A DNA stretch of 64,000 nucleotides, taken from contig OZ241869.1 in NCBI GenBank assembly GCA_965202805.1, forward strand, positions 480,001-544,000, read 5' to 3'. The notes under the pieces are model-generated. The model saw only the letters and a list, made by a program, of their open reading frames with translations. It did not search any database and had not been told where the DNA came from. Shown piece after piece: positions 17,388-38,037 of this stretch (position 1 is the first letter of the stretch; each line of letters opens with the position of its first letter). Both the position numbers and the translations under genes were made by a program. This DNA is from Longimicrobiales bacterium (GTDB lineage: Bacteria > Gemmatimonadota > Gemmatimonadetes > Longimicrobiales > Gaopeijiaceae).

Positions 17388-17421
17388 GGCGCTCCTCGGG
17401 GGTTTGATCCTAACCCATGAA

Positions 17422-17460
17422 ATACACAACGGGTTTGTTGTCAACAGATATGTTGTGTAT
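17422..17460. promoter_or_regulatory. Dyad operator-like site (copy 2)
   Basis: ATACACAAC-GGGTTT-GTTGTCAAC-AGATAT-GTTGTGTAT. Confidence 0.6.
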
Positions 17461-18062: not shown

Positions 18063-19692
18063 CCCAGGTTCAAGGGGTCGTCGCAACAGTACCGGGTTGA
18101 AGGGGTTCCTGGGCCTTCGATTCTACTGGACACCAGACTGGAGAGCGAGAGCGAAGGGTCGAGAAGGAAGTGGGTTATTGATGTCTCCCAACCCGAGGGA
18201 GTCAGAAGCGACCAAAGGTCGTGGAAGGCAGGAGACCCCCGGGCGGTGGAGCACTTGGTTTAGCGCAAGTTGGAGGTCCGGTTCAGTGATTGTGAGAGAT
18301 CTTCCAGGGTTTCGGCCGGGGTTCTCCAACCCAGGGTCTTGCGGGGGCGGCTGTTGAGAGCGGCCGCGACGGCGGAGAGATCGTCGGCCGTGTGTCTGCT
18401 GAGGTCGGTGCCTTTGGGAAAGTACTGTCTCAACAGGCCGTTGGTGTTTTCGTTCGTGCCGCGCTGCCACGGGCTTTGCGGGTCGCAGAAGTAGACGGCC
18501 AGGCCAGTGTCGATGCGAAGCCGTGCGTGCTGAGCCATCTCTGTTCCCTGGTCCCATGTCAGAGACCGGCGGAGTTGCTCGGGCAGGGTCGTGATCGACG
18601 AAGCGATCGCGTTCCGGACGGCTTCGGCACCGTGTCCAGCCAACGCTGGACCGTTCCTGGTCCTGGGCTCGTCGGGCTTGTTAAGGCGGGGGAGGTAGAG
18701 CAGCATCGTGAACCTGGAGGTCCGCTCGACCAGCGTTCCGATCGCCGAACTGCCCAGCCCCAGGATCAGGTCGCCTTCCCAGTGCCCGGGAACGGCCCGG
18801 TCGTCCGCTTCGGCCGGTCGCTCGCTGAGCATGATCTCGGGGTGAACGAACGTCTTGCCCCGTCTGCGGGTGCGAGCTCGAGGCACCCGCAGCGCCCGTC
18901 CCGTCCGAAGGCACGCTGTCAGTTCCCGTCGCAGCGCACCGCGGCCGTGAACGTAGAGCGCCTGGTAGATGGCTTCGTGCGAAATACGCATGGATTCATC
19001 GTCGGGGAAGTCGACCCGTAGCCGGTTGGAGATCTGCTCGGGACTCCACGAGGTCGCCCATCGCCGGTCTTGCCGGCGACCGCGGCGCCGTCCGGTCCAG
19101 CGCACATCCGGGCCTGCCAGAGCGGCACCGTCCGGAGCTCGGATCAGGCCTCCCAGGCGATCCTGCACATACTGCCTCAGCTCGCCGTTCGTGGCCAGCT
19201 TCGAAGGCTTTGGGCGGCTCGCTCGCCGGTCGGCGTGCCATTGAGCGGTCGTGGCCCGATACTCGAGGTTCCCTCCTCGTGTAGCCGCATTCCGCCGCAG
19301 TTCTCGCGAGATCGTCGAGGGTGAACGGCCCAGGTGCCGGGCGATCTCGCGCACGCCACGACCACGGGCTCGAAGAACGGAGATCTCTTCTCGCTCAACG
19401 AACGAGAGATAGCGCCGCGACTGGGGACGAAAATTGAGTGGTGGCATGCCACCACATTCGCGAAACCAGCGTGTGCCGACAGCGGGAGACACACCCGCTG
19501 CCACGGCGGCCTCCTCGCTCGACAGACCTCGAGCGATCTCTTTCCAGAACCTCTGTCGATGCTCGCGGCGTCCCACCGGCGGACGGCCTGGTGAACGCAT
19601 CCGTGGACGTAGGGCTCGATCCGCTCCTCGGCGCCTGCTTGCCTCCATCGCAACTCCTCCTCGAGGTGTTGCGACGACCGCTTGAATTCACC
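18063..19692 (-). mobile_element. IS30-family element
   Basis: IRs ...TTCAAG(C/G)GGTCGTCGCAACA at both ends, flanked by a CTG duplication (18060-18062, 19693-19695). Confidence 0.9.
18260..19648 (-). CDS. IS30-family transposase
   Basis: HTH GRSPSTISRELRRN, WSPEQIS, ISHEAIY, GHWEGDL, TWDQGTEM, PWQRGTNENTNGLLRQYFPKG. Confidence 0.95.
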   Translation of the reverse strand: MEASRRRGADRALRPRMRSPGRPPVGRREHRQRFWKEIARGLSSEEAAVAAGVSPAVGTRWFRECGGMPPLNFRPQSRRYLSFVEREEISVLRARGRGVREIARHLGRSPSTISRELRRNAATRGGNLEYRATTAQWHADRRASRPKPSKLATNGELRQYVQDRLGGLIRAPDGAALAGPDVRWTGRRRGRRQDRRWATSWSPEQISNRLRVDFPDDESMRISHEAIYQALYVHGRGALRRELTACLRTGRALRVPRARTRRRGKTFVHPEIMLSERPAEADDRAVPGHWEGDLILGLGSSAIGTLVERTSRFTMLLYLPRLNKPDEPRTRNGPALAGHGAEAVRNAIASSITTLPEQLRRSLTWDQGTEMAQHARLRIDTGLAVYFCDPQSPWQRGTNENTNGLLRQYFPKGTDLSRHTADDLSAVAAALNSRPRKTLGWRTPAETLEDLSQSLNRTSNLR

Positions 19693-20268
19693 CTGCGAGC
19701 CCTGGTCGCTATGATGGATGACCGGTCCCTTCGGCTGGCGACGGGTGATCGCCATCGTCAGCGCGTCGCCCACCAGATCGGCCGGCATCCGGGGCGCCAT
19801 CGCCCAGCCGACGATCCGCCGGCTCCACGCGTCCAGCACCACGGCGAGGTACAGCCATCCCGCCCGGGTGCGCACGTGCGTGATGTCGGCCACCCACAGC
19901 TGGTCGGGGCCCTCGGCCGAGAAGTCCCGCCTCACCAGGTCCGGTGCGGGCCGGGCTTTGGCGTCCCTCTTCGTCGTGCCCCGGAAGCGCCTGCGGGTCA
20001 CGCCCTCGATGCCCAGTTCCCCCATCAGGCGCGCCACCCGCTTGCGGCCCGTCCGCTCGCCCCTGGCCCGCAGCGCCGCGTGGATCCGCGGAGCGCCGTA
20101 GACGCCCCCGCTCTCGATCCAGATCGCCAGGATTGCGCCCTTGAGTTCCGCGTCGCGCCGCGCCCGCGCCGAGGGCGGACGCCGCAGCCAGTCGTTGTAC
20201 CCGCTGGGGGAGAGACCCAGCACCCGGCACATGACCGCAAGCGGGAAGGTGGCCCGGTGCGCCTTCAT
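19693..20268 (-). pseudogene. IS3 orfB N-terminal part
   Basis: YGAPRIHAAL...PDQLWVADIT...LYLAVVLDAWSRRIVGW...HHSDQGSQ, cut by IS30. Confidence 0.9.
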
Positions 20269-20582
20269 GAACGCATACCCCCGCTGGGGATCGATCCGCT
20301 CTCCCTCGCGAACCAGGCCGCGGCTTTTTTCAAGATGTCGCGCTCCATTCGCAGCCGCTTGTTCTCCCGCTTCAGCTCCCTCAGCTCCTTGCGCGCTTGC
20401 GTGGTCAGACCGTCGCTGCGGCGGCCCTCGTCCAGGTCCGCCTGCTTCACCCAGTTCCGGATCGTCTGCTCCGAAGGCTCGAACTCGCGCGCCAGAGACG
20501 CCGGGCTACGTCCCGCCCTCACGAGCTCCACCAGCCGCTCCCTGTACTCGGGCGGATACCGCCCCTTCCTGCTTCCCGCCAT
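20265..20582 (-). CDS. IS3 orfA
   Basis: YPPEYRERLVELV...LAREFEPSEQTIRNWVKQ...LKRENKRLRMERDILKKAAAWFA. Confidence 0.9.
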   Translation of the reverse strand: MAGSRKGRYPPEYRERLVELVRAGRSPASLAREFEPSEQTIRNWVKQADLDEGRRSDGLTTQARKELRELKRENKRLRMERDILKKAAAWFARESGSIPSGGMRS

Positions 20583-20804
20583 GGCACACCTCCTCGGTTG
20601 GCCCAAATGGAAAGGTGTCCGTCATAGCGGGGCAACTCCAGGCTAACCCCGTCGGTCGACCAGCAACGTGCTGCATCTGCGCGAGCTGTGTCCAGCTCTT
20701 GCGCACATTCTGGTATCCGTCCCATCTGCCCGTAGACTTCAACAAGTGGGGTTGCTAGGTTCGGGCTCCCTCAGCGCTATTCCCCCACGGGAAAGGAGCA
20801 AACG

Positions 20805-21062
20805 ATGTCGGTCGCGCAAAAAGACTACGAGCGCAAGGGCGTCGTTAGCCCGAGGTCCGTATGGCTCATCGTTGATGTGGATGATCCGTTCGGGGATATC
20901 AGCAACGAGGACGCGCTCGAAGAGCTGATCCAAGAGCTGGACAACGCCGTCCAGTCGTGGAAGGAAAAACACCGAAACCTGAATCGGACCCCCCGGCCGA
21001 GCATCAGCCGGCGCTCAGGTGTCGTCGACACCGAAGCGCTGCATGTGATGAAACGATTGTGA
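20805..21062 (+). CDS. Small hypothetical protein
   Basis: AAGGAG SD, 85 aa, protein-like composition. Confidence 0.45.
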   Translation: MSVAQKDYERKGVVSPRSVWLIVDVDDPFGDISNEDALEELIQELDNAVQSWKEKHRNLNRTPRPSISRRSGVVDTEALHVMKRL

Positions 21063-22165: not shown

Positions 22166-22314
22166 TTGTGGAAACAGGTGTTTACCCTGTCTCCGTGAGG
22201 CACTCTATACGAGGATCAGGCATCATGGCAAGTGGTGTATGCGCGCGTGGACCGAGATTCGGTTGACGTTCGCCGTCACTCTGCCGCAACCCAGCATCAA
22301 GGGAGCACTAGCAA

Positions 22315-22530
22315 GTGTCAACCACCAGCTATTACATCAACCTCAACGCCCAGGCAAATGGCGATCACGAGGTTCACGCGGAGGGATGCTACTGGCTAAC
22401 CCTGGTTCAGAAGAGACGGTATCTCGGCAGCTTCTTCTCATGCTTTCCAGCAGTCGCCACGGCAAGAGCACTCGGGTACCGGACGGCGAACGGGTGCTAT
22501 CACTGCTCACGAGCCTGTCACGACAAATAG
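22315..22530 (+). CDS. Small Cys/His-rich putative metal-binding protein
   Basis: GGAG SD + GTG; YYIN.NAQANGDHEVH..GC...YLG.F.SC..AV..A...ANGCYHCS..CH, a pattern I recognise from a conserved hypothetical family. Confidence 0.7.
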   Translation: MSTTSYYINLNAQANGDHEVHAEGCYWLTLVQKRRYLGSFFSCFPAVATARALGYRTANGCYHCSRACHDK

Positions 22531-22580
22531 CTCATCCTTTCCCCGGTACCAAGTTGCAACAACTCAAGGAGGACGATCTC

Positions 22581-22883
22581 ATGGCAGAAACCGCGAAGTG
22601 GCTCGACCTAACCTTCGAGGTACATCACCCCGACCGCGTGAGTTGGAACGCAGTGCCGGGTGTATACGTATTCGCCGGCGAAAACCTATCTGGCAATTGG
22701 TTTGCGTTGTATGTTGGCCAGACGGCATCACTGGCTGACCGTCTAGCCACTCACGAAAGGTGGCAGGAGGCGGTGCGGTGGGGCGCGACACATATTCACG
22801 TGCGGGTTGTCCACGCCGAAGGATCGCGGCTTGCTTTGGAAGGTCAATTGATTCAGGCATATCAACCTCGGTTGAATGGCTAA
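22581..22883 (+). CDS. Minimal GIY-YIG nuclease
   Basis: AAGGAGG SD; PGVYVF...LYVGQT..LADRLATH...E..LI..YQP.LN. Confidence 0.8.
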   Translation: MAETAKWLDLTFEVHHPDRVSWNAVPGVYVFAGENLSGNWFALYVGQTASLADRLATHERWQEAVRWGATHIHVRVVHAEGSRLALEGQLIQAYQPRLNG

Positions 22884-22932
22884 AGATTGTAAACTGCACC
22901 GGGAAACGACAAGAAAGGGGAGGACGCACACC

Positions 22933-23196
22933 ATGGCCATCTCAGAAGGAACCCGCGACGTGCTGCTCTTGGCGGCCAATAACAGGTGTCAGTGTTTGGG
23001 CATGTATGGCTGTGAACCACCACACACAAGATGCAACCGCATAGGAAGCCTGCTTGTCCCACTTGAGATCGACCACATAAGACCCTTATTTGCTGGCGGC
23101 ACAGACGATATCGGGAATCTCCAAGTGCTGTGTTATCAGTGCCACAAAAACAAGACCGCGCGGGATCGGGTCATATATGCTCACCTGCTCCCCTGA
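22933..23196 (+). CDS. Small HNH endonuclease
   Basis: GGAGG SD; CQC...LEIDHIRPLFAGGTDDIGNLQVLCYQCHKNKT. Confidence 0.85.
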   Translation: MAISEGTRDVLLLAANNRCQCLGMYGCEPPHTRCNRIGSLLVPLEIDHIRPLFAGGTDDIGNLQVLCYQCHKNKTARDRVIYAHLLP

Positions 23197-23197
23197 A

Positions 23198-23440
23198 TGT
23201 ACAAGTACGGGTAATCACCTGACACCCACCCTCATCTAGATTAGGTCCTACGCTGCTTTCTTCACCCCTTCCCGGCCGGGGGTTGGCGGGGGATCCCGGC
23301 CTTGGAGACCGCGTAGGGCGCGCGTCCCTTCATGCCGCAGCCCTAGTGCGGGCGGCGCTGTTTGTAGGTCTCAAGATACACGTCCAGGTCCTTCTGCATC
23401 TCCTTGACGGTCTCGTATCAGATCGTCCGCCCCGTGATCG
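23198..23440 (-). mobile_element. IS481-family right-end remnant
   Basis: Begins TGTACAAGTACGGGTAATCACCTGACA; homologous in inverted orientation to 30800-31053. Confidence 0.8.
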
Positions 23441-23766
23441 TCAGTGCTTTTCGAGGGGGGTACGGTGGAAGCGTTCGTATGTGGACGTCCCCTAGTGGGG
23501 AAGCTCGACTTCAAACCGAATCGGTAACAACCTGGTCAGGTACTGCCGTATGTCCGGGCCTCTTGATGCAGCTCTCGTTGGCTGCGGGCTCGTTATGGTG
23601 TTCCTGAGGATCGGATCCCAAAATCGATAAGCGGGCTCGACGACCCTTGAACACTTGCTGGTTTACCGATCCTATCTTCTAGACCGTTTTGCCCTACCCG
23701 TTTTGCGTCCTACCCACATCTCTCGACCGCTATCCGCTTTCGCTTCTCTCCTCTCCTAGAGGCTGG

Positions 23767-24701: not shown

Positions 24702-25934
24702 ATGAATCCACAGAGTCATCCGCGAAGCCCTCAATCCCCTGCCGGGGTTACCGGCGAAGACCAGCCATCGCCGCTCGATATCAATCTCTTCGCCGGTGCG
24801 GGAGGAATGGCTCTCGGCCTGATTGCCGCCGGTTTCTCACCACGGCTGCTCTACGAGGTGGATCCGTATGCATGCACTACCCTCCGGGACAACGCGGTCC
24901 CGGTCGATCCTCCCATTTCGGATGGCGTACGCGAGGTTGACGTCCGAAAGGTAGCGTGGCGCGAAATCGGTGACCTGAAGATCTCCGTACGACTCTTGGC
25001 TGCGGGCGTTCCCTGCCAACCGTTTAGCCTCGGCGGGAAACATCTTGCGGACAAGGATCCGCGCAACCTCTTTCCCGAGTTCCTCGACGCAGTGCGGCAG
25101 CTCAACCCTCAAGCGGTCTTCATCGAGAATGTCCGTGGCCTACTGCGACCATCCTTTAAACCATACCTTACGTATCTGCTCCGGCAGCTTGAGTTCCCTT
25201 CCCTTGGGCCCGGAGATGGAGAATCTTGGCAGGATCACTATGAGCGCCTCCGACGCCATTTGTCATCACCCGGCGTCGCCGTGCAGTATCGGGTAGAAAC
25301 GCAGCTGGTCAACGCCGCCGATTATGGAGTTCCACAGATTCGGTCGCGCGCATTCATCGTGGCTGTTCGTTCTGATATTCCCAGTGAGTACACTTTTCCG
25401 GCGCCGACCCATAGCCGGAAGGCGCTGCAACGAGTTCAACGAAACGGCGAGTATTGGCAGCGTCACAATGTCCCCGCGCCTACATCAACCCCTAAGGTGG
25501 AATCTTCCGACACCGACTGCGAAACACAACTCCCTTGGGTCACCGTCCGCGACTGCATATCCGACCTGCCCAAACCAGCTCTTCAAGCTGCTGACGCGAC
25601 TATGGATCACTGGTTCATTCCCGGAGCTAGGGAGTACCGCGGCCATACTGGTAGCAGCCTCGACTGGCCTGCGAAGACCATTAAAGCAGGGGTTCACGGT
25701 GTTCCAGGGGGAGAGAATACGGTCGTGAATGGATCAGGGGACCTCAGATACTTCACACTCCGCGAGACAGCCCGTATACAGACCTTCCCGGACGGCCATT
25801 TGTTTCATGGCGCGCGGATACACGTCACTCGGCAGATTGGAAACGCCGTTCCGACTACTCTGGCCTGTGCATTGAGTCGACCGCTCTACGAACTGCTCGT
25901 TTCTCCCGATACTTTAGCAAAGGTACGCATCTAG
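24702..25934 (+). CDS. dcm: C5 DNA cytosine methyltransferase
   Basis: LFAGAGG, GVPCQPFS, ENVRGL, YGVPQIRSR, QTFPD, QIGNAVP. Confidence 0.95.
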   Translation: MNPQSHPRSPQSPAGVTGEDQPSPLDINLFAGAGGMALGLIAAGFSPRLLYEVDPYACTTLRDNAVPVDPPISDGVREVDVRKVAWREIGDLKISVRLLAAGVPCQPFSLGGKHLADKDPRNLFPEFLDAVRQLNPQAVFIENVRGLLRPSFKPYLTYLLRQLEFPSLGPGDGESWQDHYERLRRHLSSPGVAVQYRVETQLVNAADYGVPQIRSRAFIVAVRSDIPSEYTFPAPTHSRKALQRVQRNGEYWQRHNVPAPTSTPKVESSDTDCETQLPWVTVRDCISDLPKPALQAADATMDHWFIPGAREYRGHTGSSLDWPAKTIKAGVHGVPGGENTVVNGSGDLRYFTLRETARIQTFPDGHLFHGARIHVTRQIGNAVPTTLACALSRPLYELLVSPDTLAKVRI

Positions 25935-28306
25935 TGGAAATGCACACCAGCCGTGAGCGAACACGGATGTTCGATCTTCAACCTCACCCGCGGATCCTGC
26001 CGATGTTAGGTGAGATCAACATCCACCCTTGGCAGTGCATCGCCGAGTTGATCGACAATTCACTTGACGCGTTCATCGCTGCCAAAGCTGAATCTGGAAC
26101 TAGTGTTCCGGATGCCCAGATAGTCGTGTCGTTACCGACAAGGAATGTTCCTCACGCGTTAGTCACCGTCAAGGATAATGGGCCCGGCATGGATGCCGAG
26201 ACGTTGGAGAACGCGGTCAAGGCCGGGTGGACCAGCAACGATCCTATGGGGCATCTCGGGATGTTTGGAATGGGATTTAACATAGCCACGGCGCGCCTCG
26301 GAAAGGTGACGCGGGTTTGGAGCACTCGTCAATCAGACTTGGAGTGGCACGGATTAGAAATCGACTTCGACAAGCTCTCACAACAACGTCACTTTTTGAC
26401 TCCCGTACTGACCCGACATAAAGAGGATCCAGACGAACACGGAACAGAGGTCCGAATCGAGCGACTGAAGCCTAGCCAGCGAAAACTCCTCGCCACATCG
26501 GCAGGTCGCGCAAACATCAATCGGCGGCTTGAGCGTGTATACTCCTCCATGTTGAGACCTAACGGTGTGCCGCTCACCGTTAGAGTGCATGTGAACACGA
26601 AAAGGTTGGAAGGACATCGGCACTGCGTTTGGGGTGATCCTTCGAACTCGCCCGAACGTGCTGTGACTCACGGTCGATTCGGTACGATTGACGCTTTCCA
26701 GCATGTCGACACTCCGCCAACGGAGCGACCCTTTTGCACGAAGTGTTGGACATGGCTCGCGAACGAGGAAGACGCGTGTGTGACCTGTCAGAGCAGTGAT
26801 GCGGTGCGCATCTTGCAGCGCCGGATTCACGGTTGGATCGGGCTGCAGCGATACCTCGATCCGAACGACTACGGTATCGATTTCTTGCGTCACGGCCGAA
26901 AGATCGAAATCGGGAACCGAGACCTGTTCAAATGGCGGGATGACATCAAGGAGGAACTGGAGTATCCGATCGACGATCCCCGTAGTCGTGGGCGACTAGT
27001 TGGTGAGATCCACTTGGATCATTGCAGAGTTCATTACACGAAGGACCGGTTTGAGCGAAGTGATCCTGCTTGGCAGGAAATGGTCCGAGTTGTTCGTGGC
27101 GACGGTCCTCTCCGTCCTGACAAAGCCAAGAGCCTCGGATACCTTACCAACAGGTCACCGCTCTTTCTTCTATTCCAAGCCTTTCGCAGGTCAAAGCCGA
27201 AGAAGGATGCCGGATCTTATGCTCGCAACCTCGTTGTAGATAACAACGACTTGGCGATTGAGATGGCACGACGGTTTCGGGCGGGTGAGGCCGAGTACCA
27301 AAGCGACGCGAAGTGGTGGGAGTTGGTCCAGGAAAAGGACGCGGAACTCCTCTACAAGAAGGAATCTAGTCGCTCAACAAACGACATACTCTGGCAGAAG
27401 AAAGATCAGGTTGATGACAACTCGCAGGAGCCTGACCACAGCTCATCTGCTGACGATGTTACCGAGACGCCACGGCCTCTTCGCAACAGAATCCCATCCC
27501 TAAGCCGAGAATACCGGCATGACGATACCGAGCAACGCTGGCCGGTGGAAGCCTTCTCCGTGCACGCGAAGGATCCCGACCTCGGCGGAGGGATGTACCC
27601 TTGGAGACTTCGACAGATCTCTGCAGGTGAGTTTCAGTTTCTAATTCAGTCCGATCATCCTGTTTTCGCATCCGCAACGATGACGCTTTTGGATGCCCTT
27701 CTCGCCGAGCTATCCTGGTCCGCAATGGACTTCCTGCATGGACGTGAAACCACGGCTACATTCGGCTCTGTCCTCGCGGATCTGCGAGAACGTTACGCTC
27801 AGATAACCAAGTTGGATCCGGTCGATCTAGCTGCGGATGCGGCGCGAGTGCTCCGTGGCTTCTCGGCAAGCCTTGAAAACACCCTGTCGCCTGACGATGC
27901 GAAAGCGTTGTTTGACGAATTGGCACCTCGAGAACGGGAGTCGATCCTCACGAGACTCGCTCAGCTTGATGGATCGCAAGCGATTCATGCGATTCATAGT
28001 GGATCGTTCCTAAAATACGCTACGGGCGCCACCACACTTCGCTTTTTCGAAGAACATCCGGAACTGTTCTTCGACGGACAGCATTGGGACATTCAATACG
28101 ACGATCTCGATTTGCCGAGTCCCGCAGCCACCGAGACCGCCAAGAGAGAGCTCGTCCGTCGGTTCGTCTCGCTGCTTGCCGACGCCATTTGGCTGGCGGA
28201 GAGCAATCCTGAAGACTTAGAAGAGGCAGGCAGGCCGCGCTTGTTACGCGCTCACCTCGCCCTCGACCTCCTTGCGTTTGACGTAAGGAACGATCACGCC
28301 GAATGA
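25934..28306 (+). CDS. MORC-like GHKL ATPase with Zn-ribbon and long C-terminal region
   Basis: ELIDNSLDA, KDNGPGM, GMFGMGF, GTEV; CTKC...CVTC; S5-like GEIHLDHCRVHYTKDRF; start overlaps the dcm stop. Confidence 0.85.
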   Translation: MEMHTSRERTRMFDLQPHPRILPMLGEINIHPWQCIAELIDNSLDAFIAAKAESGTSVPDAQIVVSLPTRNVPHALVTVKDNGPGMDAETLENAVKAGWTSNDPMGHLGMFGMGFNIATARLGKVTRVWSTRQSDLEWHGLEIDFDKLSQQRHFLTPVLTRHKEDPDEHGTEVRIERLKPSQRKLLATSAGRANINRRLERVYSSMLRPNGVPLTVRVHVNTKRLEGHRHCVWGDPSNSPERAVTHGRFGTIDAFQHVDTPPTERPFCTKCWTWLANEEDACVTCQSSDAVRILQRRIHGWIGLQRYLDPNDYGIDFLRHGRKIEIGNRDLFKWRDDIKEELEYPIDDPRSRGRLVGEIHLDHCRVHYTKDRFERSDPAWQEMVRVVRGDGPLRPDKAKSLGYLTNRSPLFLLFQAFRRSKPKKDAGSYARNLVVDNNDLAIEMARRFRAGEAEYQSDAKWWELVQEKDAELLYKKESSRSTNDILWQKKDQVDDNSQEPDHSSSADDVTETPRPLRNRIPSLSREYRHDDTEQRWPVEAFSVHAKDPDLGGGMYPWRLRQISAGEFQFLIQSDHPVFASATMTLLDALLAELSWSAMDFLHGRETTATFGSVLADLRERYAQITKLDPVDLAADAARVLRGFSASLENTLSPDDAKALFDELAPRERESILTRLAQLDGSQAIHAIHSGSFLKYATGATTLRFFEEHPELFFDGQHWDIQYDDLDLPSPAATETAKRELVRRFVSLLADAIWLAESNPEDLEEAGRPRLLRAHLALDLLAFDVRNDHAE

Positions 28307-30000
28307 CTATAGGCGTGAGGGGCGACGCTGGCTTCCTCGACGATCGTCGCCTGTTGCATGGCCCCTGGCAAGCCTTCGAACGTGACACGGCTCGGCTGTT
28401 TTTGGCGAACGGGTTTGACGACGTTCGCCTGATCGGTGGACCCGGTGAACAGGGTGCAGACGTGCTTTGCGTTCGCGACTCGAAACTCTGGGTCGTGCAA
28501 TGCAAGTGGACTGGGCAGTACGGTCCTCCGAAGACCGCCATCGACCAAATCGTTCGAGCTGGGCGCTCCTACGAAGCAGATCACCTCGTTGTCGCGGTGT
28601 CTCGGCATCCTAAGGAATCGTTCAGACAAGAACGCGCTCGTTACCAGCGACGCGGCCTCAGAATCGATGTCGCTACCCCTACCGTTCTTAGGGATCTCTT
28701 GGTCCGAACACCGGAATACCCACCCTCGCGGCGCAACCTCCGTGATTATCAAGAGGATGCTTCCACCCGGTTACGCGAAGCCCTCATCGACACGGGCCGC
28801 GGGCAGGTTGTGATGGCGACCGGGCTTGGCAAGACCGTGGTTATGGCCGAACTCGTCGCGGATCTCCTTCGCGATGATCGGATTCCAGCCCGCCAGGTTC
28901 TGGTACTGGCTCATACTCGAGCACTGGTCGATCAGCTACACCAGAGCTTTTGGCATCAACTCCCGAGATGGATCCCTACGCATCAACTTGCCGGCAACGA
29001 GATGCCTACGTATTGGGAAGGTATCACTTTCGCCACGATTCAACGGGTAGGCACTTGTGTCGGCAACCTACCGGCATTTGGACTTATTCTCGTTGACGAG
29101 GCACACCACATCGGCGCAGCCACTTTTCGGTCCGTTATCGACGCCCTGCAGCCCAGCATGTTGGGAGGAGTTACGGCCACACCATGGCGAGGTGACGGCT
29201 TCGAAATCGACAGCCTACTGGGGCCGCCACTCGTCCAGATCGGCATTGCGGAGGGTCTCCGGCGCGGCTTCCTCTCCGAGGTGGACTACCGGATGTTTGG
29301 GGACAACTTGGACTGGACGTTAATACAGCGCATGTCGCGTTACAACTATTCACTGTCTCAGTTGAATAAGAAACTGATCCTTCCTACACGTGACGCGGAA
29401 GCCGCGCAGATCATTAGAGATGTTTTTGCTTCGGAACGACGTCGAAATGGAATCGTTTATAGTCCGTCGATCGAACATGCGAACGCATTTGCAGCGTCGT
29501 TGCGTCAGTACGGCATGAGGGCCGAGGCTGTGTCATCGCGGATGAACGCGCGTGACCGCGACGCGCTCATGGCTTCGTTCCGCGCTGGCCGTCTGGATGT
29601 CGTTACTACTGTGGATCTCTTCAACGAGGGCGTCGATGTTCCGGATGTGGATCTCATCGTATTCATGCGAGTGACGCACAGTAGGAGGATATTTGTACAG
29701 CAGCTCGGAAGAGGACTGCGAGTCAGTCCTGGGAAAGATCGGGTGATCGTCTTGGACTTTGTGTCTGATCTGAGAAGGATCGCTGAAGTGGTCCGCCTAG
29801 ACCGCGATGTTCGCCAAGGCAATGTAGAGCAGCTTGGGCTGGGTGGCCACCTCGTCCAGTTCAGTGATAGATCGGCAGGCGACTTTCTGGTGGAGTGGAC
29901 GCTAGATCAGGCAGACCTGTTCTCGCGTGAAGGAGAATCTCATCTAGACTTGCCGCAGTTTCAATTCCCGGCACCGAAAGGTCCTGGAAGTGTTCAGTGA
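28303..30000 (+). CDS. Mrr-like restriction endonuclease fused to an SF2 (Res/DEAH) helicase
   Basis: AFE..ARL...GF.DV...GEQGADV...VVQCK; ATGLGKT, DEAHH, TATP, LFNEGVDVP, QQLGRGLR; ATGA overlap. Confidence 0.9.
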   Translation: MTIGVRGDAGFLDDRRLLHGPWQAFERDTARLFLANGFDDVRLIGGPGEQGADVLCVRDSKLWVVQCKWTGQYGPPKTAIDQIVRAGRSYEADHLVVAVSRHPKESFRQERARYQRRGLRIDVATPTVLRDLLVRTPEYPPSRRNLRDYQEDASTRLREALIDTGRGQVVMATGLGKTVVMAELVADLLRDDRIPARQVLVLAHTRALVDQLHQSFWHQLPRWIPTHQLAGNEMPTYWEGITFATIQRVGTCVGNLPAFGLILVDEAHHIGAATFRSVIDALQPSMLGGVTATPWRGDGFEIDSLLGPPLVQIGIAEGLRRGFLSEVDYRMFGDNLDWTLIQRMSRYNYSLSQLNKKLILPTRDAEAAQIIRDVFASERRRNGIVYSPSIEHANAFAASLRQYGMRAEAVSSRMNARDRDALMASFRAGRLDVVTTVDLFNEGVDVPDVDLIVFMRVTHSRRIFVQQLGRGLRVSPGKDRVIVLDFVSDLRRIAEVVRLDRDVRQGNVEQLGLGGHLVQFSDRSAGDFLVEWTLDQADLFSREGESHLDLPQFQFPAPKGPGSVQ

Positions 30001-30027: not shown

Positions 30028-30468
30028 ATGACAGAGGAGTCCCGGCGAGATCCGCTCACGCCGCAGCAACGTTCGTCATTGATGAGGCGCATTCGCAGTA
30101 AGGATAACCGCTCGACAGAAAGGCTGGTGGAAGACACACTCAGGCGCCGCAGCATCGGCGGCTGGACGAAGCATGCTAAGGAGTTGCCGGGGACGCCCGA
30201 CTTCTATTTTCCTGACTGCAAGCTCGCGGTGTTTGTGCATGGCTGCTTCTGGCATGTATGCCCAAAGTGCAAGAGAAAGACGCCGCAGAGTAGAAGGAGT
30301 TTCTGGACTCGCAAGCTTGACGAGAATCGACGACGTGACCAAAGAGTTCGCCGAAGACTGTGGAGAGACGGGTACCACGTTATCCGGGTGTGGGAACATG
30401 ATTTGAAGGGAGACACTTGGATCCGACGGCTGGAGTCCAAATTGGAGAAGCTTAGGGCGATGGACTGA
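30028..30468 (+). CDS. vsr: Very short patch repair endonuclease
   Basis: RSSLMRRIRSK, LPGTPDF, FVHGCFWH, FW..KL..N..RD, IRVWEH. Confidence 0.95.
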   Translation: MTEESRRDPLTPQQRSSLMRRIRSKDNRSTERLVEDTLRRRSIGGWTKHAKELPGTPDFYFPDCKLAVFVHGCFWHVCPKCKRKTPQSRRSFWTRKLDENRRRDQRVRRRLWRDGYHVIRVWEHDLKGDTWIRRLESKLEKLRAMD

Positions 30469-30483: not shown

Positions 30484-31053
30484 TCACCCCTTTAGCGGTC
30501 GGCAGAGAAACCGCACCCGAACCGCGTCGCGCCGCCGATCGAGAAGGCGATCCTGGCCCACGCCCTCAAACACCTGACCCACGGCGCCCAGCGGGTGGCC
30601 AACGAGCTGATGCTCAGAGGGCTCCAGGTCAGTTCGGGTGGGGTGCGGGGCGAGTACTGCGGCCGGCCGGACAAGCACCCCTACGACCTTTTCCTGCAGC
30701 TGGAGGAACATCGAGCACCGCACCACGAAGGTGGGGAGGCCCCAGTCCAACGGCTTTATCGAGCGCTTCCACCGCACGCTCCTCGAAGAGCATCTCCGGA
30801 TCAAGGGACGGACCACCTGGTACGAGACCGTCGAGGAGACGCAGAAAGACCTGGACGTGTATCTTGAGATCTACAACCCGACGGCGCCCGCACCAGGGCC
30901 GCGGCATGAAGGGACGGACGCCCTACGCGGTCTTCAAGGCCGGGATCGCCCGGAAGCGCACTCGCAAACCCTCGGCCGGCAAGGAGGTGAAGAAAGCAGC
31001 GTAGGACCTGACCTCGGTGAGGCCGGGTGTCAGGTGATTACCGTATTTGTACA
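30484..31053 (+). mobile_element. IS481-family internally deleted remnant with intact right end
   Basis: EYCGRPDKHPY.LFLQLE, PQSNGFIERFHRTLLEEH; ends TGTCAGGTGATTACCGTATTTGTACA. Confidence 0.85.
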
Positions 31054-31072: not shown

Positions 31073-34000
31073 TCAAGGTCTCGGAAACAACGGTCGCCAT
31101 CTCCCTTTCGTTCCTTCACTCCATAAGATCGGCAGACTGTTGTTCGGGCAGGTATTCTCGAACACCACGAGCGCCTGGCAGTTTCCATAACCCAGCGGAC
31201 TCCGCTTCACCAGGTCCTTTCCATATTGCCCCGCGATCTCCTTCGCCCGCGCTCGCCTCGCTTCGTCTTGGATGACTGCCGACATATCGGAAAAGCACTT
31301 GTCAGATTCATCAAGAGGTTCAGCAACCGTCACCCGAAGGTCGCTTGCCACCGACCTCAAATTCTTCTCCAAGCGCTCTGCAGCCCTTTTGAAGCCAGAT
31401 ATGAACACAACAAATACACAAATCTCCGCCTTCTCAAGAGAATCGGTAATCTCTTCCAAAATCTCCTTCAATTCCCGTTGCGCCGTCCGTCCAGTACCGA
31501 TAAAGTCGTCAACAAACACTATTCCCTTTACGTCCGAAAATTCCTCGATTTTCGCGTTCAAGTGATCAGGCCGCACAATTCGATTAGAATAAACCTGATT
31601 CTCGTCTGCATAATGCTTGGCATAGGTCGGACCTCTCTTGCCGTGGCTTCCAAAGAAACTGATGACAATGTTGTACGTCTCTCTGCGCTGACGCCGCTCC
31701 CGTCCCTTACGCACCACACCGCGGGCTGCAAGTTCAGCCACAACAGATCGATGCCTGTCTCGCAACTTTTCTCTTATCACCGCCCCGGAATAGAATCGCA
31801 ACTCCATGAGTAAATCGAACATTGACCGTTGCTCTTCTACTGTGGCAAATTGATCCAGCCACGCTCTTAGATTGTTGTCAGTGATCGACTTTCCGCGATA
31901 GCTTCCCCAATTGTCCACCAACTCGCTGATCTCCCTCGCCTTGACGCGCATTCCCTCCTCGCGCTCCTTGCCCTCCCGAAGTGCTTCCTCCTCAACCAAC
32001 GTCAAGCTCAGTTCTCCTACACCCTCGTCAACAAGCCATCGTTGAAAGAGGCGTACTTTGCACTCATATTGACTCTCTATTTTTACCAGTACTTTCCGTT
32101 TTTCGAATTCCGCTAGTATCCGTTCGACGTCAGATTCCCCCATTCCAAATCGCGACACTCTCTCGGTGACGTTGTCCAAAGTACTGCTCTGCTTGGACCT
32201 GAGGACCTCGCCAAGCGCTAGCAACACTCGGCGTCGGGCAGCCCTCTCTTCGGCAACTTTCTCGTCAGTCGGCGCGATTACGCCGTCGTCCCAGAAATGC
32301 TGAAAGCTGTTGATGCCCACTGCTTCGACCGCCATACCGATCGCTTGATCCATCTCAACGCGGGTAACATCCGCATCTTTGCGCCGCTTCATATCCTCTA
32401 CAAGCTCCGCACAAACGACCTTCGTAAAGTATGGGTTCCCTGCAGTATTGTCGTAGAGTTTCGCAACAGCCTCTTCCGAAATCGTAGCCCACTTGTTCCA
32501 CTTGTTTAGTGGCCTTCGGACCAAGTCGACGAAATCCGACCACTGCGACTCGCGATCCAAATAGTCAAGCCGCAGCAGCGAGAACTTGTTGAGTCTCCCT
32601 CCATGCGTACTCAGTATTTCGGCCATCCTCTCGCCACCGACCAAGATGAAGCCGAGAGATGCTTTGGCACTCAGCGACCTCAGGGTCACAAAAAAACTGC
32701 GGCTCATATCGCCGCGGCGGTAGAGTTGGGTCGGAAGTTCGTCAAACTCATCGAGGACCACAACCAATCGGAGATCGGGATCTCGCTGGCGTGCCGCGTT
32801 CAAGAAGTGATCCAGCGGCGCGAGCGTGCCCCGAAACTCCGGCACGGACAACCCCTGTAGTTTCGGATTGCCATAAATGAGGCGTGTACAGATCTCGTTT
32901 CCAAGGTTACGAATAGTTTGTGTGGCATCGGGGACCACGAACAATCCAGCTTCCAGGGTGAGCAGTGTCACTCCCGCCATTTTGGGCAAGTCGGCCAACG
33001 TGACGACGACAGATGTCTTGCCGACCCGTCTCTGGCCGTAGACAAAGAACGACCCGACGCTGGGAGCAGTCAGTTTTGACACCAGCCGGGCAGTCTGTTC
33101 GGCACGGCCAATCAGATCGTCGGGCTCGCTCACGGGTTCAAGGCTGTAAGGCTGAGCATCGAGGCTCTCCCATGGGATATCGGCCGGTTGGGTGGGAAGC
33201 TCGATGAGCGCGTCCATATCCCCGTCCGTTCCGTCGCCGTTTTTCCACGTTAGCTTGTACTGCGCGAAGACAGAATCTTCCGGGGGCTTGCACACTCTGG
33301 CCGGAAATTCGACCGGCCCAAAAAACTGACCGGACTCGACATGGTCGAGGAATTGGGATGGTGACGGCAGCGAAAAGCAGTCGGCCGGTTTGATCGACAA
33401 TTCGACATCAAACGCAGGTCCTGGGCCTTTGTTCTCCACGACAAAGGCCAGTCGTATGTCTGCATCGACATTGACAAAAGGATACCTCTTACGGACGTCT
33501 TGCAAGACGAGCCGGCCGGGGCGATTCGCGGGACTGGCCTCGAAATGCGTCGTGACCTGGCGCTTCAGTTGATTGAAGAACGGTCGAAAGAATTGGGTGA
33601 CGTAAAAGGTGTCGTGTCGCGCACAGTCTTCGAGTACGCAGGTGAGGCTGGCTCTCGCGTCGTTGTGGGCCTGCATCGCGGATCGAGAGTGTGCCGACAT
33701 GTAATTGCCCACTCGCTTTAGGATTGCAGCGAGCTCTTGCTTTGACAGAAATTTCGGTAGGAACGGTTTGACGATCGCTCCGAACAGCAGTTGGCTGTAG
33801 AGCCGCATAATACGCTGACGGACCTGCTCGAAGTCGGCGAGAGATTCAGGGGGAGTCAGGGCCTTGGCAAGCATGACGTGAGCCTCTTCCGCAGCCCGCT
33901 CGTGTGCTTGCAGCTGTTCGTAACCCTGAAGTCCGCGGTCAATCTTTAATGCCTTGGCGACGTGGGGTAGCTTGCGGAATAGCTTTCGGACTGCCAGCTG

Positions 34001-34285
34001 TTGGTCAGAAGGTAGGTCGTAGACTTGCTTCGGCTGTGCGGAAAAGAGGCGAAGGAATACTGCGGCGAAAAACCGCTGATCGGCATTGGACTGGGTGTGT
34101 GACAGGACCTCTTTGAGAACTTCCGCATCGCTCGCCTGACCAGCGTCTCGACCCTGATGCGCAAGCATGGCTCGACAAAGCTGGCTGAATCGGTCCCGTC
34201 GACTTGACGCCGATACCAAGAGGAGGTGGTCGATCCGGCGACATGCGCGGGCCTGTCGACTAAGGTCCGACTGGCTAGGCATCAT
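31073..34285 (-). CDS. Large STAND-like ATPase with C-terminal phosphoribosyltransferase-like (PRTase-CE-type) domain, ~1070 aa
   Basis: YGQRRVGKTS, VVLDEFDE, TAGNPYF; IVFVDDFIGTGRTA and LGYG...VVFENTCPNNSLPILW; visibly lower GC than the cox genes; start estimated. Confidence 0.8.
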   Translation of the reverse strand: MMPSQSDLSRQARACRRIDHLLLVSASSRRDRFSQLCRAMLAHQGRDAGQASDAEVLKEVLSHTQSNADQRFFAAVFLRLFSAQPKQVYDLPSDQQLAVRKLFRKLPHVAKALKIDRGLQGYEQLQAHERAAEEAHVMLAKALTPPESLADFEQVRQRIMRLYSQLLFGAIVKPFLPKFLSKQELAAILKRVGNYMSAHSRSAMQAHNDARASLTCVLEDCARHDTFYVTQFFRPFFNQLKRQVTTHFEASPANRPGRLVLQDVRKRYPFVNVDADIRLAFVVENKGPGPAFDVELSIKPADCFSLPSPSQFLDHVESGQFFGPVEFPARVCKPPEDSVFAQYKLTWKNGDGTDGDMDALIELPTQPADIPWESLDAQPYSLEPVSEPDDLIGRAEQTARLVSKLTAPSVGSFFVYGQRRVGKTSVVVTLADLPKMAGVTLLTLEAGLFVVPDATQTIRNLGNEICTRLIYGNPKLQGLSVPEFRGTLAPLDHFLNAARQRDPDLRLVVVLDEFDELPTQLYRRGDMSRSFFVTLRSLSAKASLGFILVGGERMAEILSTHGGRLNKFSLLRLDYLDRESQWSDFVDLVRRPLNKWNKWATISEEAVAKLYDNTAGNPYFTKVVCAELVEDMKRRKDADVTRVEMDQAIGMAVEAVGINSFQHFWDDGVIAPTDEKVAEERAARRRVLLALGEVLRSKQSSTLDNVTERVSRFGMGESDVERILAEFEKRKVLVKIESQYECKVRLFQRWLVDEGVGELSLTLVEEEALREGKEREEGMRVKAREISELVDNWGSYRGKSITDNNLRAWLDQFATVEEQRSMFDLLMELRFYSGAVIREKLRDRHRSVVAELAARGVVRKGRERRQRRETYNIVISFFGSHGKRGPTYAKHYADENQVYSNRIVRPDHLNAKIEEFSDVKGIVFVDDFIGTGRTAQRELKEILEEITDSLEKAEICVFVVFISGFKRAAERLEKNLRSVASDLRVTVAEPLDESDKCFSDMSAVIQDEARRARAKEIAGQYGKDLVKRSPLGYGNCQALVVFENTCPNNSLPILWSEGTKGRWRPLFPRP

Positions 34286-34320
34286 ACTCGAGCTATCCGG
34301 TATCGGTGACTCACCCCCCC

Positions 34321-36687
34321 CTACTCCGCCACCCCCTTCTCCCGCAAAATCTCCCACACCCGATCCGGCCGAATCGGGATCTCCACATGCGTCACCCCCA
34401 GGTGCGCCAGCGCATCCACCACCGCGTTGGCAATCGCCGGCGGCGCCCCCACCGTAGCCGACTCCCCGACCCCCTTCGCCCCCAGCGGATGATGCGGCGA
34501 CGGCGTCACCGTATGCCCGGTCTCCCACATGGGCGTCTCCACCGCGGTCGGCACCAAGTAGTCCATGAACGAGCCGGCCAGGTTGTTGCCGTCCTCGTCG
34601 TACGCCATCTCCTCGTACAACGCGGGACCCAGCCCCTGGGTCAACCCACCGTGGATCTGCCCCTGCACGATCATCGGGTTGATGATGTTGCCGCAGTCGT
34701 CCACCGCCACGAAGCGCCGCACGGTCACCTCGCCCGTCCCGCGGTCGATGTCCACCACGCAGATGTACGTTCCGAACGGGAACGTCAGGTTGGGCGGGTC
34801 GTAGTAGTTGGTCGCCTCCATTCCCGGCTCCATTCCCGGGGGCAGGTTGGTGTAGGCGGCGAAGGCGCAGTCCTGGATGGACACCGACTTGTCCGGGGCG
34901 CCCTTCACCGAGAAGGTGCCGGGCTCCCAGTCCAGGTCCTCCTCGCTCACCTCGAGCAGGTGCGCGGCGATCTTCGCGGCCTTGTCGCGGATCTGGCGCG
35001 CGGCCATCGCGCCCGCGGCGCCCGCGGTCGGGGTCGAGCGGCTCGCGTACGTCCCCAGGCCATACGGCGCCGTATCCGTGTCGCCCTCCTCCACCTGCAC
35101 GTGCTCGGCCGGGAGGCCCAGTTCCTCGGCGATGATCTGCGCGTACGTCGTCTCGTGGCCCTGGCCCTGCGACTTCGTCCCGAACCTGGCGATGGCCTTG
35201 CCGGTCGGGTGCACGCGCACCTCGGCCGAATCGAACATCTTGATGCCCAGGATGTCGAAGTCCTTCGACGGGCCGGCGCCGAGCACCTCGGTGAAGCTGC
35301 ACACGCCGATGCCCATCAGCTCGCCGCGCGCGCGCTTCTCGGCCTGCTCCGCGCGCAGGTCGTCGTAGCCGATCATCTCCCTGGCCTTGTCCATCGCGGC
35401 CTGGTAGTCGCCGCTGTCGTACTCCCAGCCCAGTGGCGAGTGGTACGGGAAGGCGTCCTTGGGGATGAAGTTCTCCTCGCGCAGCGTCGCGGGGTCCTTG
35501 CCCACCTTGTGCGCGAGCGTGTCCACGATGCGCTCCATGCAGTGCACGGCCTCGGTCACGCGGAAGGAGCAGCGGTACGCCACGCCTCCCGGCGGCTTGT
35601 TGGTGTAGACCGCGTCGACCTCGGCGTACGCCTGCTCCATGTCGTAGGACCCGGTGCAGATCGAGAAGAGGCCCGCGGGGAACTTGGACGGCGCGGCCTG
35701 GGCGTCGGAGTAGCCGTGGTCCGCGAGCGTCTTGATGCGGAGCGCCCGGATCTTGCCGTCGGCGTTGGCCGCGAGTTCGGCGTCCATGTGATAGTCGCGC
35801 GCGAAGGAGTCGGCCTGGAGGTTCTCCATCCGGTCCTCGATCCACTTGACCGGGGTGCCCAGCACCACCGACGCCGCGATGGCGATCACGTAGCCGGGGT
35901 AGACCGGCACCTTGCCGCCGAAGCCGCCCCCGATGTCGGGGCTCACCACGCGGATCTTCTCCTCGGAGAGCCCCACGTGGCCCGCCACCAGCGCGAGCAC
36001 GGTGCGGATGGCGTGCGGGGCCTGGGTGGTCATGTAGACGGTGAGGTGCCCCTCGACCGGGTTGAAGTCCGCGAGGCAGCCGCAGGTCTCGATCGACGCC
36101 ACGTGGATGCGCGGCACGTGCATCTTCTCGCGCACCACCACGTCGGCCTCGTCGAAGATCCGGTCCGTGGCCTCCTTGTCGCCCGCCTCCCAGTGCCAGA
36201 TGCGGTTGTCGGTCTTGCCTTCCTTGTCCACCCGCAGCACCGGCGCGTCGTCCTCGAGGGCCTTGAACGGGTCCATCACGGGGGTCATCGGCTCGTATTC
36301 GACCTCGACCGCGGCCACGCCGTCGGCGGCCGCATAGCGCGAGGTCGCGATCACGCCGGCCACCTCCTGCGCCTGGTACATGACCGTGTCGGTGGGGAGC
36401 ACCATCTGGGTGTCCGACATGAGGGTCGGCATCCAGTGGAGGTTGTACGCCTCCAGGTCCTTGCCCGTGAGCACGGCGAGCACGCCGGGGATCTCGAGCG
36501 CCTTGGAGCTGTCGATGTTCTTGATCTTGCCGTAGGCGATGGGGCTCCGGACGACGTCCAGCCACAGCATCCCCGGGAGCGTGAAGTCGTCGATGTAGTT
36601 GCCCTTGCCCTGCAGGAAGCGCGGGTCCTCCTTGCGCTTCATGGAGTGGCCCATGCCGCAGATTTTGGCGGATGTCTTCGGTGCCAT
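34321..36687 (-). CDS. coxL: Aerobic CO dehydrogenase large subunit, form I
   Basis: GGVAYRCSFRVTEA form I active-site motif, GGGFGGK, QGQGHETTYAQI, AKGVGES. Confidence 0.97.
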   Translation of the reverse strand: MAPKTSAKICGMGHSMKRKEDPRFLQGKGNYIDDFTLPGMLWLDVVRSPIAYGKIKNIDSSKALEIPGVLAVLTGKDLEAYNLHWMPTLMSDTQMVLPTDTVMYQAQEVAGVIATSRYAAADGVAAVEVEYEPMTPVMDPFKALEDDAPVLRVDKEGKTDNRIWHWEAGDKEATDRIFDEADVVVREKMHVPRIHVASIETCGCLADFNPVEGHLTVYMTTQAPHAIRTVLALVAGHVGLSEEKIRVVSPDIGGGFGGKVPVYPGYVIAIAASVVLGTPVKWIEDRMENLQADSFARDYHMDAELAANADGKIRALRIKTLADHGYSDAQAAPSKFPAGLFSICTGSYDMEQAYAEVDAVYTNKPPGGVAYRCSFRVTEAVHCMERIVDTLAHKVGKDPATLREENFIPKDAFPYHSPLGWEYDSGDYQAAMDKAREMIGYDDLRAEQAEKRARGELMGIGVCSFTEVLGAGPSKDFDILGIKMFDSAEVRVHPTGKAIARFGTKSQGQGHETTYAQIIAEELGLPAEHVQVEEGDTDTAPYGLGTYASRSTPTAGAAGAMAARQIRDKAAKIAAHLLEVSEEDLDWEPGTFSVKGAPDKSVSIQDCAFAAYTNLPPGMEPGMEATNYYDPPNLTFPFGTYICVVDIDRGTGEVTVRRFVAVDDCGNIINPMIVQGQIHGGLTQGLGPALYEEMAYDEDGNNLAGSFMDYLVPTAVETPMWETGHTVTPSPHHPLGAKGVGESATVGAPPAIANAVVDALAHLGVTHVEIPIRPDRVWEILREKGVAE

Positions 36688-37166
36688 CAGTCGCCCTCCC
36701 CCATCCTGGCGGCGGCGTATTCCACCGCCTTGACGATGTTCACGTATCCGGTACAGCGGCAGAGGTTTCCGGAGATGGCCTCGCGGATCTCGGCTTCGCT
36801 GGGATTCGGATTGTCTTCGAGCAGCGCGGTCCCGGTCATGAGCATGCCGGGGGTGCAGAAGCCGCACTGGAGGCCGTGCTCCTGCTGGAAGCCTTCCTGC
36901 AGCGGCGTCATGCCGTCCGCGCCGGCGAGTCCTTCGACCGTGCCGATCTCGGCGCCGTCGGCCTGGACCGCGAGCATGGTGCACGACTTGGTGGGCGCGC
37001 CGTCGACCAGGACGGTGCAGGCGCCGCAGTGCGTGGTGTCGCAGCCGATGTGGGTGCCGGTGAGCGCGAGGTCGTCGCGGATCAGGTGCACGAGCAGGAG
37101 GCGCGAGTCGACCGTGGCCGAGTGCGCCGTGCCGTTCACCGTGACGGTGATCTGGTGTGTCGCCAT
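36687..37166 (-). CDS. coxS: CO dehydrogenase small 2Fe-2S subunit
   Basis: [28 protein letters not shown]. Confidence 0.95.
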
Positions 37167-37170
37167 GTCC

Positions 37171-38037
37171 CTAACCTCCTGCGCGCGCGAGCGCCTTGCG
37201 GATGGCACGGGCCGTGAGCACGCGGGCCATGTTCTGCTTGTATTCGACGGAGCCGCGCCGGTCGGCGATGGGCTCGGTGGCGTCGGCGGCGGCCTGCGCG
37301 GCGGCGGCGATGGCGGCGCCGCCGGGGGCCTGGCCCGTGAGCGCTTCCTCCGCGGCGGTCGCGCGGATGGGGGCGATGCCCAGGTTGGTGAGCCCGATGC
37401 CCGCGCTCGCCACGGTCCCGTCGTCGGCCAGCGAGAGCTGCACCGCGGATCCGGCCACGGCGTAGTCGCCCACCTTGCGCTCGAGCTTGACGTAGGCGCC
37501 GCCGCTGTTGGGGGCGGGCGCCGGGATGCGGATTTCGGTCAGGATCTCACCCTCTCCGAGCGCCGTCATGAAGAGCCCGAAGAAGAACTCGCCGATGTCG
37601 ATGGTGCGCGCGCCGTCCGGTCCCGTGGCCACCACCTCGGCGCCGAGCGCCAGCATGGTCGCGGGATGGTCGTTGGCGGGGTCGCCGTGCGCGATGTTGC
37701 CGCAGATGGTGGCGCGGTTCCGCACCAGCGGGTCGGCGATCACCTTCGCGGTGTCGAGCAGGATGGGATAGCGCTCCGCCACCACCGCCGACTGCTCGAG
37801 CTGGGTCTCGGTCACCAGCGCGCCGATGCGCAGGACGCCGTCCTCTTCCGCGAGCGTGTCGAGGCCCGGGATGCGCCCGATGTCCACGATGTTGGCCGGC
37901 GAGGCCAGGCGCAGCTTCAGCATCGGCAGGAGGCTCTGCCCGCCCGACATCACCTTCGGGTCGTCGAGGGAGCCGAGCAGCCCCAGCGCCTCGTCCAGCG
38001 AGCCGGGGGCGTGGTAGTCGAACTGCGGGGGAATCAT
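37171..38037 (-). CDS. coxM: CO dehydrogenase medium FAD subunit
   Basis: [40 protein letters not shown]. Confidence 0.95.

Follow-up and report, generated by a model that had tools for sequence, protein, structure and literature searches.

Does a gene that lies beside a four-gene methylase–MORC operon belong to that operon, or does it work alone? We asked this of a 64,000-nucleotide stretch from a Longimicrobiales bacterium (Gemmatimonadota; contig OZ241869.1, positions 480,001 to 544,000; hereafter the window), in which a long minus-strand open reading frame (ORF) hides a gene that joins a STAND-type ATPase to a phosphoribosyltransferase (PRTase)-like domain, PRTase-CE. By analogy with type III-A retron effectors, we think it rather probable that this STAND–PRTase-CE protein is a stand-alone switch against phages, similar to nucleotide-binding leucine-rich-repeat (NLR) proteins, which would sense with its N-terminal part and kill with a C-terminal domain that consumes phosphoribosyl pyrophosphate (PRPP).

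The STAND–PRTase-CE gene and its domains

The ORF and the parts of the gene are laid out in the window as follows.
31073..36565, minus strand: ORF of 1,830 amino acids (aa) present in the window
34286..36565, minus strand: upstream artefactual part of the 1,830-codon ORF, a shadow frame of coxL by its codon GC pattern
31073..34285, minus strand: STAND–PRTase-CE gene, 1,070 aa, with an ATG at 34285 or 34282 and a stop that ends at 31073
33521..34285, minus strand: residues ~1-255, N-terminal region that looks helical and is poorly conserved; candidate sensor (conservation)
33170..33520, minus strand: residues ~256-372, immunoglobulin (Ig)-like beta segment (weak matches to CARDB and other Ig-like families)
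32276..33169, minus strand: residues ~373-670, STAND-type P-loop NTPase (Pfam, motifs, conservation)
31871..32275, minus strand: residues ~671-805, putative winged helix and linker (weak matches)
31076..31870, minus strand: residues 806-1070, PRTase-CE domain of type I PRTase fold (Pfam, PADLOC, model, fold search)

The 1,070-residue gene is real and intact. The first 760 codons of the ORF have GC contents at the three codon positions (GC1/2/3) of 0.96/0.65/0.44, which is the pattern of the coxL frame (0.65/0.44/0.96) rotated by one position, and we therefore read them as a shadow of coxL; the remaining 1,070 codons give 0.62/0.41/0.62. Shadow frames of this kind are common: of the 755 stop-free frames in the genome that span 760 codons or more, 395 are shadow-like in that GC3 is not their highest value. 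The start codon (34285 or 34282) lies 35 nt past the coxL stop, and the nearest homologs are ~1,066 aa long and align from residue 2 of the 1,070-aa protein. A single 1,830-aa protein, or read-through from coxL, was rejected because the upstream codon pattern belongs to coxL, and also because none of the 120 homologs listed exceeds 1,299 aa in a search that admitted lengths up to 1,873 aa. The initial annotation, made from the letters of the window, had proposed both the artefactual ORF and a start just past coxL, and codon composition and homolog lengths bear it out. The database gene call for the host genome (P0002) is 933 aa, 137 residues too short, and its correction is a separate gain. 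The low GC content that had been remarked for gene and neighbouring operon alike was also recovered (54.9% for the gene and 55-58% for the four-gene operon, against 68.4% for the genome). Scanning for promoters and terminators gave results at chance level.

The C-terminal domain matches PF24390 over residues 806-1069 and profile positions 1-253 of 253, at 175.1 bits against a cut-off of 27 (E 3.1e-51). It carries the PRPP loop VFVDDFIGTG at residues 923-932 and then G1032-x14-PNNSLP; the motifs quoted at the outset are thus present in the protein. Conservation was assessed throughout in 208 homologs of 1000-1120 aa, chosen by length: D926 is kept in 203 of them, D927 in 205 and G932 in all 208, and the G-x14-PNNxxP motif in 183. 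The retron PRTase_III-A models of PADLOC also match the domain (best E 2.5e-39). An AlphaFold model of the C-terminal 271 residues, built with 56 sequences, reached a pLDDT of 93.9 and a pTM of 0.90, and its best structural match was the uracil PRTase 1vst (Z 11.6, rmsd 3.2, 145 aligned; VIA-align), the first nine rows being all PRTases or PRTase-like. Foldseek returned six matches at E <= 0.001, all PRTases at low TM-scores of ~0.3, and a PDB sequence search with the PRTase profile gave PRTase folds in 21 of 22 rows at E <= 10, none singly significant. With profile, model and Foldseek in agreement, the PRTase-like domain first suggested from its motifs is confirmed, at the level of a predicted structure, as a type I PRTase fold. 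No swapping of the C-terminal effector was seen among 18 homologs of atypical length, and those that lack PF24390 look truncated or frameshifted.

The STAND-type assignment of the NTPase, likewise proposed at the outset, is confirmed by sequence motifs. Pfam AAA_22 matches residues 411-558 (31.1 bits against a cut-off of 27, E 3.3e-7), and the segment has GR at 393-394, Walker A (GQRRVGKTS) at 417-425, Walker B (DEFD) at 512-515 and GxP at 616-618. Besides Walker A and B, we take the GR and GxP motifs to be hallmarks of STAND proteins. Walker A is intact in 207 of the 208 homologs, and conservation is 99-100% for G393/R394, ~100% for D512/D515 of Walker B and 100% for G616/P618. NTPase segments matched AAA_22 and AAA_16 in 51/51 cases, ATPase_2 in 49/51 and NACHT in 13/51, and their neighbours in the ESM Atlas include nSTAND1 clusters. 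Residues ~671-805 gave weak matches (DUF5817_CT in two homologs, WH_DRP in 1/51, an MCM C-terminal domain at E 0.35) which point to a putative winged helix.

The N-terminus is the least conserved part of the protein (mean 0.31 versus 0.49-0.54 elsewhere), and residues 1-255 contain no position conserved at 90% or more. For this region we obtained no usable Atlas match, no significant PDB match and no match to a known effector; shorter homologs look like fragments. A HEPN domain (DUF4145) was rejected, as it rested on one weak match in homolog P0064 with no conserved residues. In P0064 (1299 aa) the N-terminal helical region is duplicated in tandem, and a 1204-aa homolog (L180 in genome G011, 7563-11177), which adjoins a GmrSD-DUF4268 gene, has a different and longer N-terminus, which suggests that this region is exchangeable. 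An earlier description of a helical N-terminus followed by an Ig-like segment holds in its first part, since the region is helical-looking; the second part is weakly backed. Ig-like families matched in some homologs (CARDB in 6/54, DUF7077 in 3, Ig_VWA7 in 3, DUF11 in 2) and none matched in the window protein's own segment, for which a PDB search returned only V-set Ig chains at non-significant scores.

Distribution and related systems

A profile scan confirmed 400 stretches with the gene in a species-genome collection and at least 462 in metagenomes; because scanning relied on two peptide patterns taken from the NTPase, divergent members were missed. We kept 80 genome and 80 metagenome stretches as a set of 160 loci. 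Record titles of the homologs include Gemmatimonadota (the closest, 57-58% identity), Chloroflexota, Acidobacteriota, Bacteroidota, Planctomycetota, Cyanobacteria, Actinomycetota, Proteobacteria, Bacillota and a few archaeal bins. The single-gene architecture of ~1,050-1,080 aa is constant across many phyla and uniform in the 150 top-ranking representatives at 50% identity. The ESM Atlas has clusters, of 133 and 125 members, in which PF24390 is combined with AAA_22, so the combination has already been catalogued automatically. Several homologs on long contigs (L020, L032, L039, L048, L072 and others) are split by frameshifts or insertions, which may reflect either errors of assembly or the decay of a toxic gene.

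The distribution of the gene is patchy. Among 60 relatives of the host, a full-length ortholog occurs in one, a diverged homolog in another and a free-standing PRTase-CE domain in a third, and no copy was found in 72,556 plasmid records. Two viral contigs carry the gene, one after tail and amidase genes and the other before an integrase-like ORF.

PRTase-CE occurs in other conflict systems. Nicastro et al. 2023 (NAR 51:11479) are said to have described cassettes of PRTase-CE (PF24390) with a DNA methylase and an ORC-CDC6-like ATPase (PF24389). These share the effector family with the window protein, but PRTase-CE, ATPase and methylase are separate genes there, whereas here PRTase-CE is fused to a different ATPase: the window protein has no PF24389 match at E <= 0.1, and no neighbour, methylase included, is fixed across loci. 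A same-genus genome (G004, locus L181, 5745-10200) encodes an N6/N4 methylase, a free-standing PRTase-CE and an ORC-CDC6-like ATPase (PF24389) in one operon, and this free-standing domain aligns to that of the window at 99.7% probability.

PRTase-like effectors are an established feature of type III retrons (PMC7736814; PMC13712802). The type III-A effectors (Retron-Eco11; Mestre 2020 clusters 67 and 113) resemble the window domain in the PADLOC PRTase_III-A match, the PRPP loop and the G-x14-PNN motif. They differ in that our protein is fused to a STAND ATPase, that its motif reads PNNxxP rather than the PNNxP printed in PMC12746101, and that its putative winged helix precedes the PRTase domain instead of following it. 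No reverse transcriptase (RT) family was found among 160 nearest-neighbour ORFs (E <= 1e-9) or the nine window neighbours scanned, and a crude motif scan gave no credible RT. Such effectors are also established in ShosTA, DS-32 (bioRxiv 2025.01.08.631726; PMC13092281) and Ophion (bioRxiv 2025.09.30.679545), defence systems that likewise use a type I PRTase fold. All three are multi-gene systems with an antitoxin or partner, and none has a STAND switch; the DS-32A model NF053875 scored 36.4 bits against a cut-off of 250, and no NADAR was present among the neighbours scanned.

Avs/AVAST proteins are similar in being single-gene STAND-type switches with an enzymatic-type domain that reside in defence islands and prophages. 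In contrast to them, the candidate effector is C-terminal here and there is no TPR or WD40 sensor; no PADLOC Avs model matched the window protein. The accessible parts of the text and seven supplements of a 2026 STAND survey (PMC13581612) do not contain "PRTase" or "phosphoribosyl", and those of PMC12839542 do not mention PRTases. Literature searches listed no paper on a STAND–PRTase fusion, although the paper that reportedly named PRTase-CE (Nicastro et al. 2023) may describe it. STAND–PRTase-CE is a widespread single-gene architecture that is apparently experimentally unexplored.

Proposed mechanism and competing readings

We suggest that the N-terminal part, helical and Ig-like and variable in sequence, would recognise a phage product or cue, upon which the STAND domain, by analogy, would exchange its nucleotide and oligomerise. 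The clustered PRTase-CE domains are predicted to consume PRPP; this drain may starve nucleotide synthesis and halt the infected cell, which would amount to abortive infection. That the protein would work alone is argued by its fixed single-gene architecture and the lack of a recurring neighbour family, and the low conservation of the N-terminus is as expected of a sensor in an arms race. For the output there are precedents. Mutation of the PRPP loop of Retron-Eco11 abolishes defence, and its activation lowers PRPP by ~50% (PMC12746101); the PRTase of ShosT binds PRPP, and a mutant of its two aspartates loses the filamentation phenotype (PMC11961720).

Several points weigh against this proposal. 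The drop in PRPP reported for Eco11 was modest (P =.04, three replicates; PMC12746101). The Eco11 effector tested is of type III-A3, whereas PMC13712802 groups PF24390 with III-A1; the enzymology assumed here thus derives from a sister family. The Ophion PRTase defends without abortive infection (10.1101/2025.09.30.679545). The proposed layout is the reverse of that of Avs and NLR proteins, which have an N-terminal effector and a C-terminal sensor, and the PRTase domain could be the sensor. Finally, 45 of the 53 loci with at least 5 kb on both sides have no type I, III or IIG restriction–modification (RM) gene within 5 kb, and several homolog loci lie among housekeeping genes.

The gene resides in defence islands and prophages, and it often lands in RM operons. 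The genes that turn up beside it most often are hsdS, hsdM, type III mod, hsdR and res, with no family recurring in more than 14 of the 160 loci; others include GmrSD, Mrr, BrxA/BrxC, DndB, a CBASS cyclase and transposases. A type I, III or IIG RM gene or an Mrr-helicase lies within 5 kb in 24 of 139 non-redundant loci, and such an RM gene in 8 of the 53 long-flank loci, as counted with hidden Markov models built from these same neighbours. Some copies sit within operons, as in hsdR-STAND-hsdM-hsdS (L075), between hsdS and hsdR (L120) or between DUF1156 and DUF499 (L009).

This setting raises a second reading, that the protein is a general guard. It would keep watch on a restriction complex of type I, III or IIG, or on a phage anti-restriction protein, and kill the cell once restriction is disabled, for which PrrC is a precedent. 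The initial annotation had it perhaps guarding the RM-like complex next door. Orientation speaks for such a role: adjacent RM genes are co-oriented with the STAND gene in 22 of 24 cases, compared with 73 of 126 non-RM neighbours (Fisher p 0.001), with the caveat that spurious antisense ORFs may deflate this background and that the control families below stand outside the orientation comparison. One genome flagged as unpublished (G444, locus L012) accounts for a single locus among the 160, a single genome among the 50 searched for MORC and, among the 24 loci with an RM gene nearby, one that is co-oriented; without it the figures are 21/23 and p 0.002, and the proximity control and the tree exclude it.

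Proximity itself is not particular to this gene. When N6_Mtase and RE_endonuc matches were mapped in 49 homolog genomes and distances measured, the STAND-fused PRTase-CE lay within 10 kb of an RM marker in nine, where ~1.3% was expected (p 1e-8, ~14-fold). In these genomes, CBASS cyclases did so in 1/8 cases and OLD nucleases in 4/22, together 5/30, which is indistinguishable from 9/49 (Fisher p 1.0) in a control that is small and from whose list three N6_Mtase matches are missing. On a 65-row FastTree, which apart from L002 and L003 omits loci with short flanks and no RM gene, the RM label requires 17 changes, compared with 18.6 after shuffling, and 122 of 500 shuffles were as low; we found no RM-linked subclade, the label being scattered. 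The partner RM systems are, moreover, of unrelated types. Co-orientation thus keeps the guard idea in view, whereas proximity equals that of other defence genes, and we regard a guard function as possible but unlikely.

A reading with canonical NLR polarity is somewhat less likely still. Here the C-terminal PRTase fold would read a PRPP or nucleotide level altered by infection and flip the STAND switch, and the N-terminal helical and Ig-like region would be the output, making the protein a metabolism-sensing bacterial NLR; if true, a class of metabolite-sensing NLRs would be present across many phyla. PyrR is a PRTase fold that serves as a ligand sensor, and it appears among our structural and sequence matches. 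Sensors of Avs and NLR proteins sit at the C-terminus (PMC13581612), and ShosT gave no PRTase activity on four purines (PMC11961720). Against this stand the N-terminal 255 residues, with neither strongly conserved positions nor a known effector, and the alignment of free-standing PRTase-CE homologs over the whole domain. Related domains also act as retron effectors (PMC12746101, PMC7736814), and NTPases of the ORC/CDC6 clade with C-terminal effectors are known (PMC10853773).

That the gene is a non-defence regulator or a passenger of mobile DNA would fit the housekeeping neighbours at many loci and the interspersion of defence and non-defence STAND clades (PMC13581612). We consider it improbable given the enrichment near RM markers, the patchy spread, an effector family common to retrons and the strong conservation of catalytic-type residues. 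The defence role supposed at the outset is probable.

The neighbouring MORC module and the island

The following features lie on the far side of the STAND stop.
24702-25934, plus strand: C5 DNA methylase (DCM), profile match
25934-28306, plus strand: GHKL/MORC-like ATPase, profile match
28303-30000, plus strand: Mrr-type restriction endonuclease with superfamily 2 (SF2) helicase, profile match
30028-30468, plus strand: Vsr, profile match
30510..31053, plus strand: IS481-like transposase remnant between the STAND stop and vsr (rve_3 match; repeats elsewhere in the genome)
23198-23477: second transposase remnant, inverted, which repeats elsewhere in the genome

Operon and STAND gene converge, with one remnant between them, a point that the initial annotation had not raised. 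The two remnants, which we presume to be of the IS481 type, bracket the four-gene module and leave the STAND gene outside.

The gene had been put forward as a possible fifth component of this locus, a proposal that homologs occurring apart from MORC or helicase genes were to refute, and a check of co-occurrence speaks for such independence. By tblastn, MORC and DCM were found in none of the 160 STAND homolog loci, Vsr in two and a true Mrr-helicase relative in one (L144); 64 of the 139 non-redundant loci have at least 6.5 kb downstream, room for the module as placed in the window. The MORC protein had no match in any of 50 genomes that carry the STAND gene, the search having covered 50 of the 80 genome loci. 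Since the same query finds orthologs elsewhere (2/400 genomes of the phylum), its failure here agrees with independence rather than with obligate linkage. No MORC ortholog was matched in the three of 60 relatives that have a STAND ortholog, a diverged homolog or a free-standing PRTase-CE, which may overlap the genomes of the homolog loci. Nor is the module present within 10 kb downstream of the closest orthologs (L001 and L002, 57-58%).

The converse search agrees. No STAND or PRTase-CE match was found in six other MORC-module loci (four fetched of five plasmid matches, plus two genomes), of which five keep DCM, MORC and Mrr-helicase together, and none of the five plasmids with MORC homologs carries the STAND gene. 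The sole observation that counts against full independence is L144, where Vsr and a 43% identical Mrr-helicase are convergent with the STAND gene as in the window and the contig ends before the MORC position; the STAND copy of L144 is 32% identical to that of the window and far from it on the tree. Adjacency, similar low GC and L144 are thus outweighed by these counts, the opposite strand and the flanking remnants, and membership of a DCM–MORC–Mrr/helicase–Vsr system is hardly credible. The two systems in this island are merely side by side.

The DCM, MORC-like ATPase and Mrr-endonuclease/SF2 helicase (with or without Vsr) form a conserved mobile module in their own right, which also occurs on Ruegeria, Pseudosulfitobacter, Deinococcus and Rhodococcus plasmids and in genome G117. 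The MORC-like gene of the window has no PADLOC match. Elsewhere the module helicase is followed by a gene of ~175-200 aa and, in two copies, the methylase by a GIY-YIG/Eco29kI nuclease; both are missing from these positions in the window. Small GIY-YIG-like (weak, E 0.035) and HNH nuclease genes lie upstream of the methylase operon (22239-23196, plus strand).

Further out, the window contains a plasticity region (2157-21000) with YhgA/Rpn-like genes, IS30-like and IS3-like transposases, a DUF4268 protein and a uracil-DNA glycosylase-superfamily protein. A second STAND-like ATPase (8851-10914, minus strand; AAA_16, nSTAND5-like), with a helix-turn-helix and a TPR-like tail, is in the same island. 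On the other side, coxL with the motif AYRCSFR, which we take to be the signature of form I CO dehydrogenase, and a coxS-like gene (34321-37208, minus strand) mark the core-genome edge of the island.

If the proposed switch is confirmed, PRPP depletion would join the effector range of bacterial NLR-like proteins, in a reversed sensor–switch–effector layout that lies outside the design of the 2026 STAND survey, whose sensor clustering took C-terminal regions of at least 400 aa. As a single gene, apparently without RT, non-coding RNA or antitoxin, STAND–PRTase-CE also offers a simple handle on what PRTase-CE makes or destroys.

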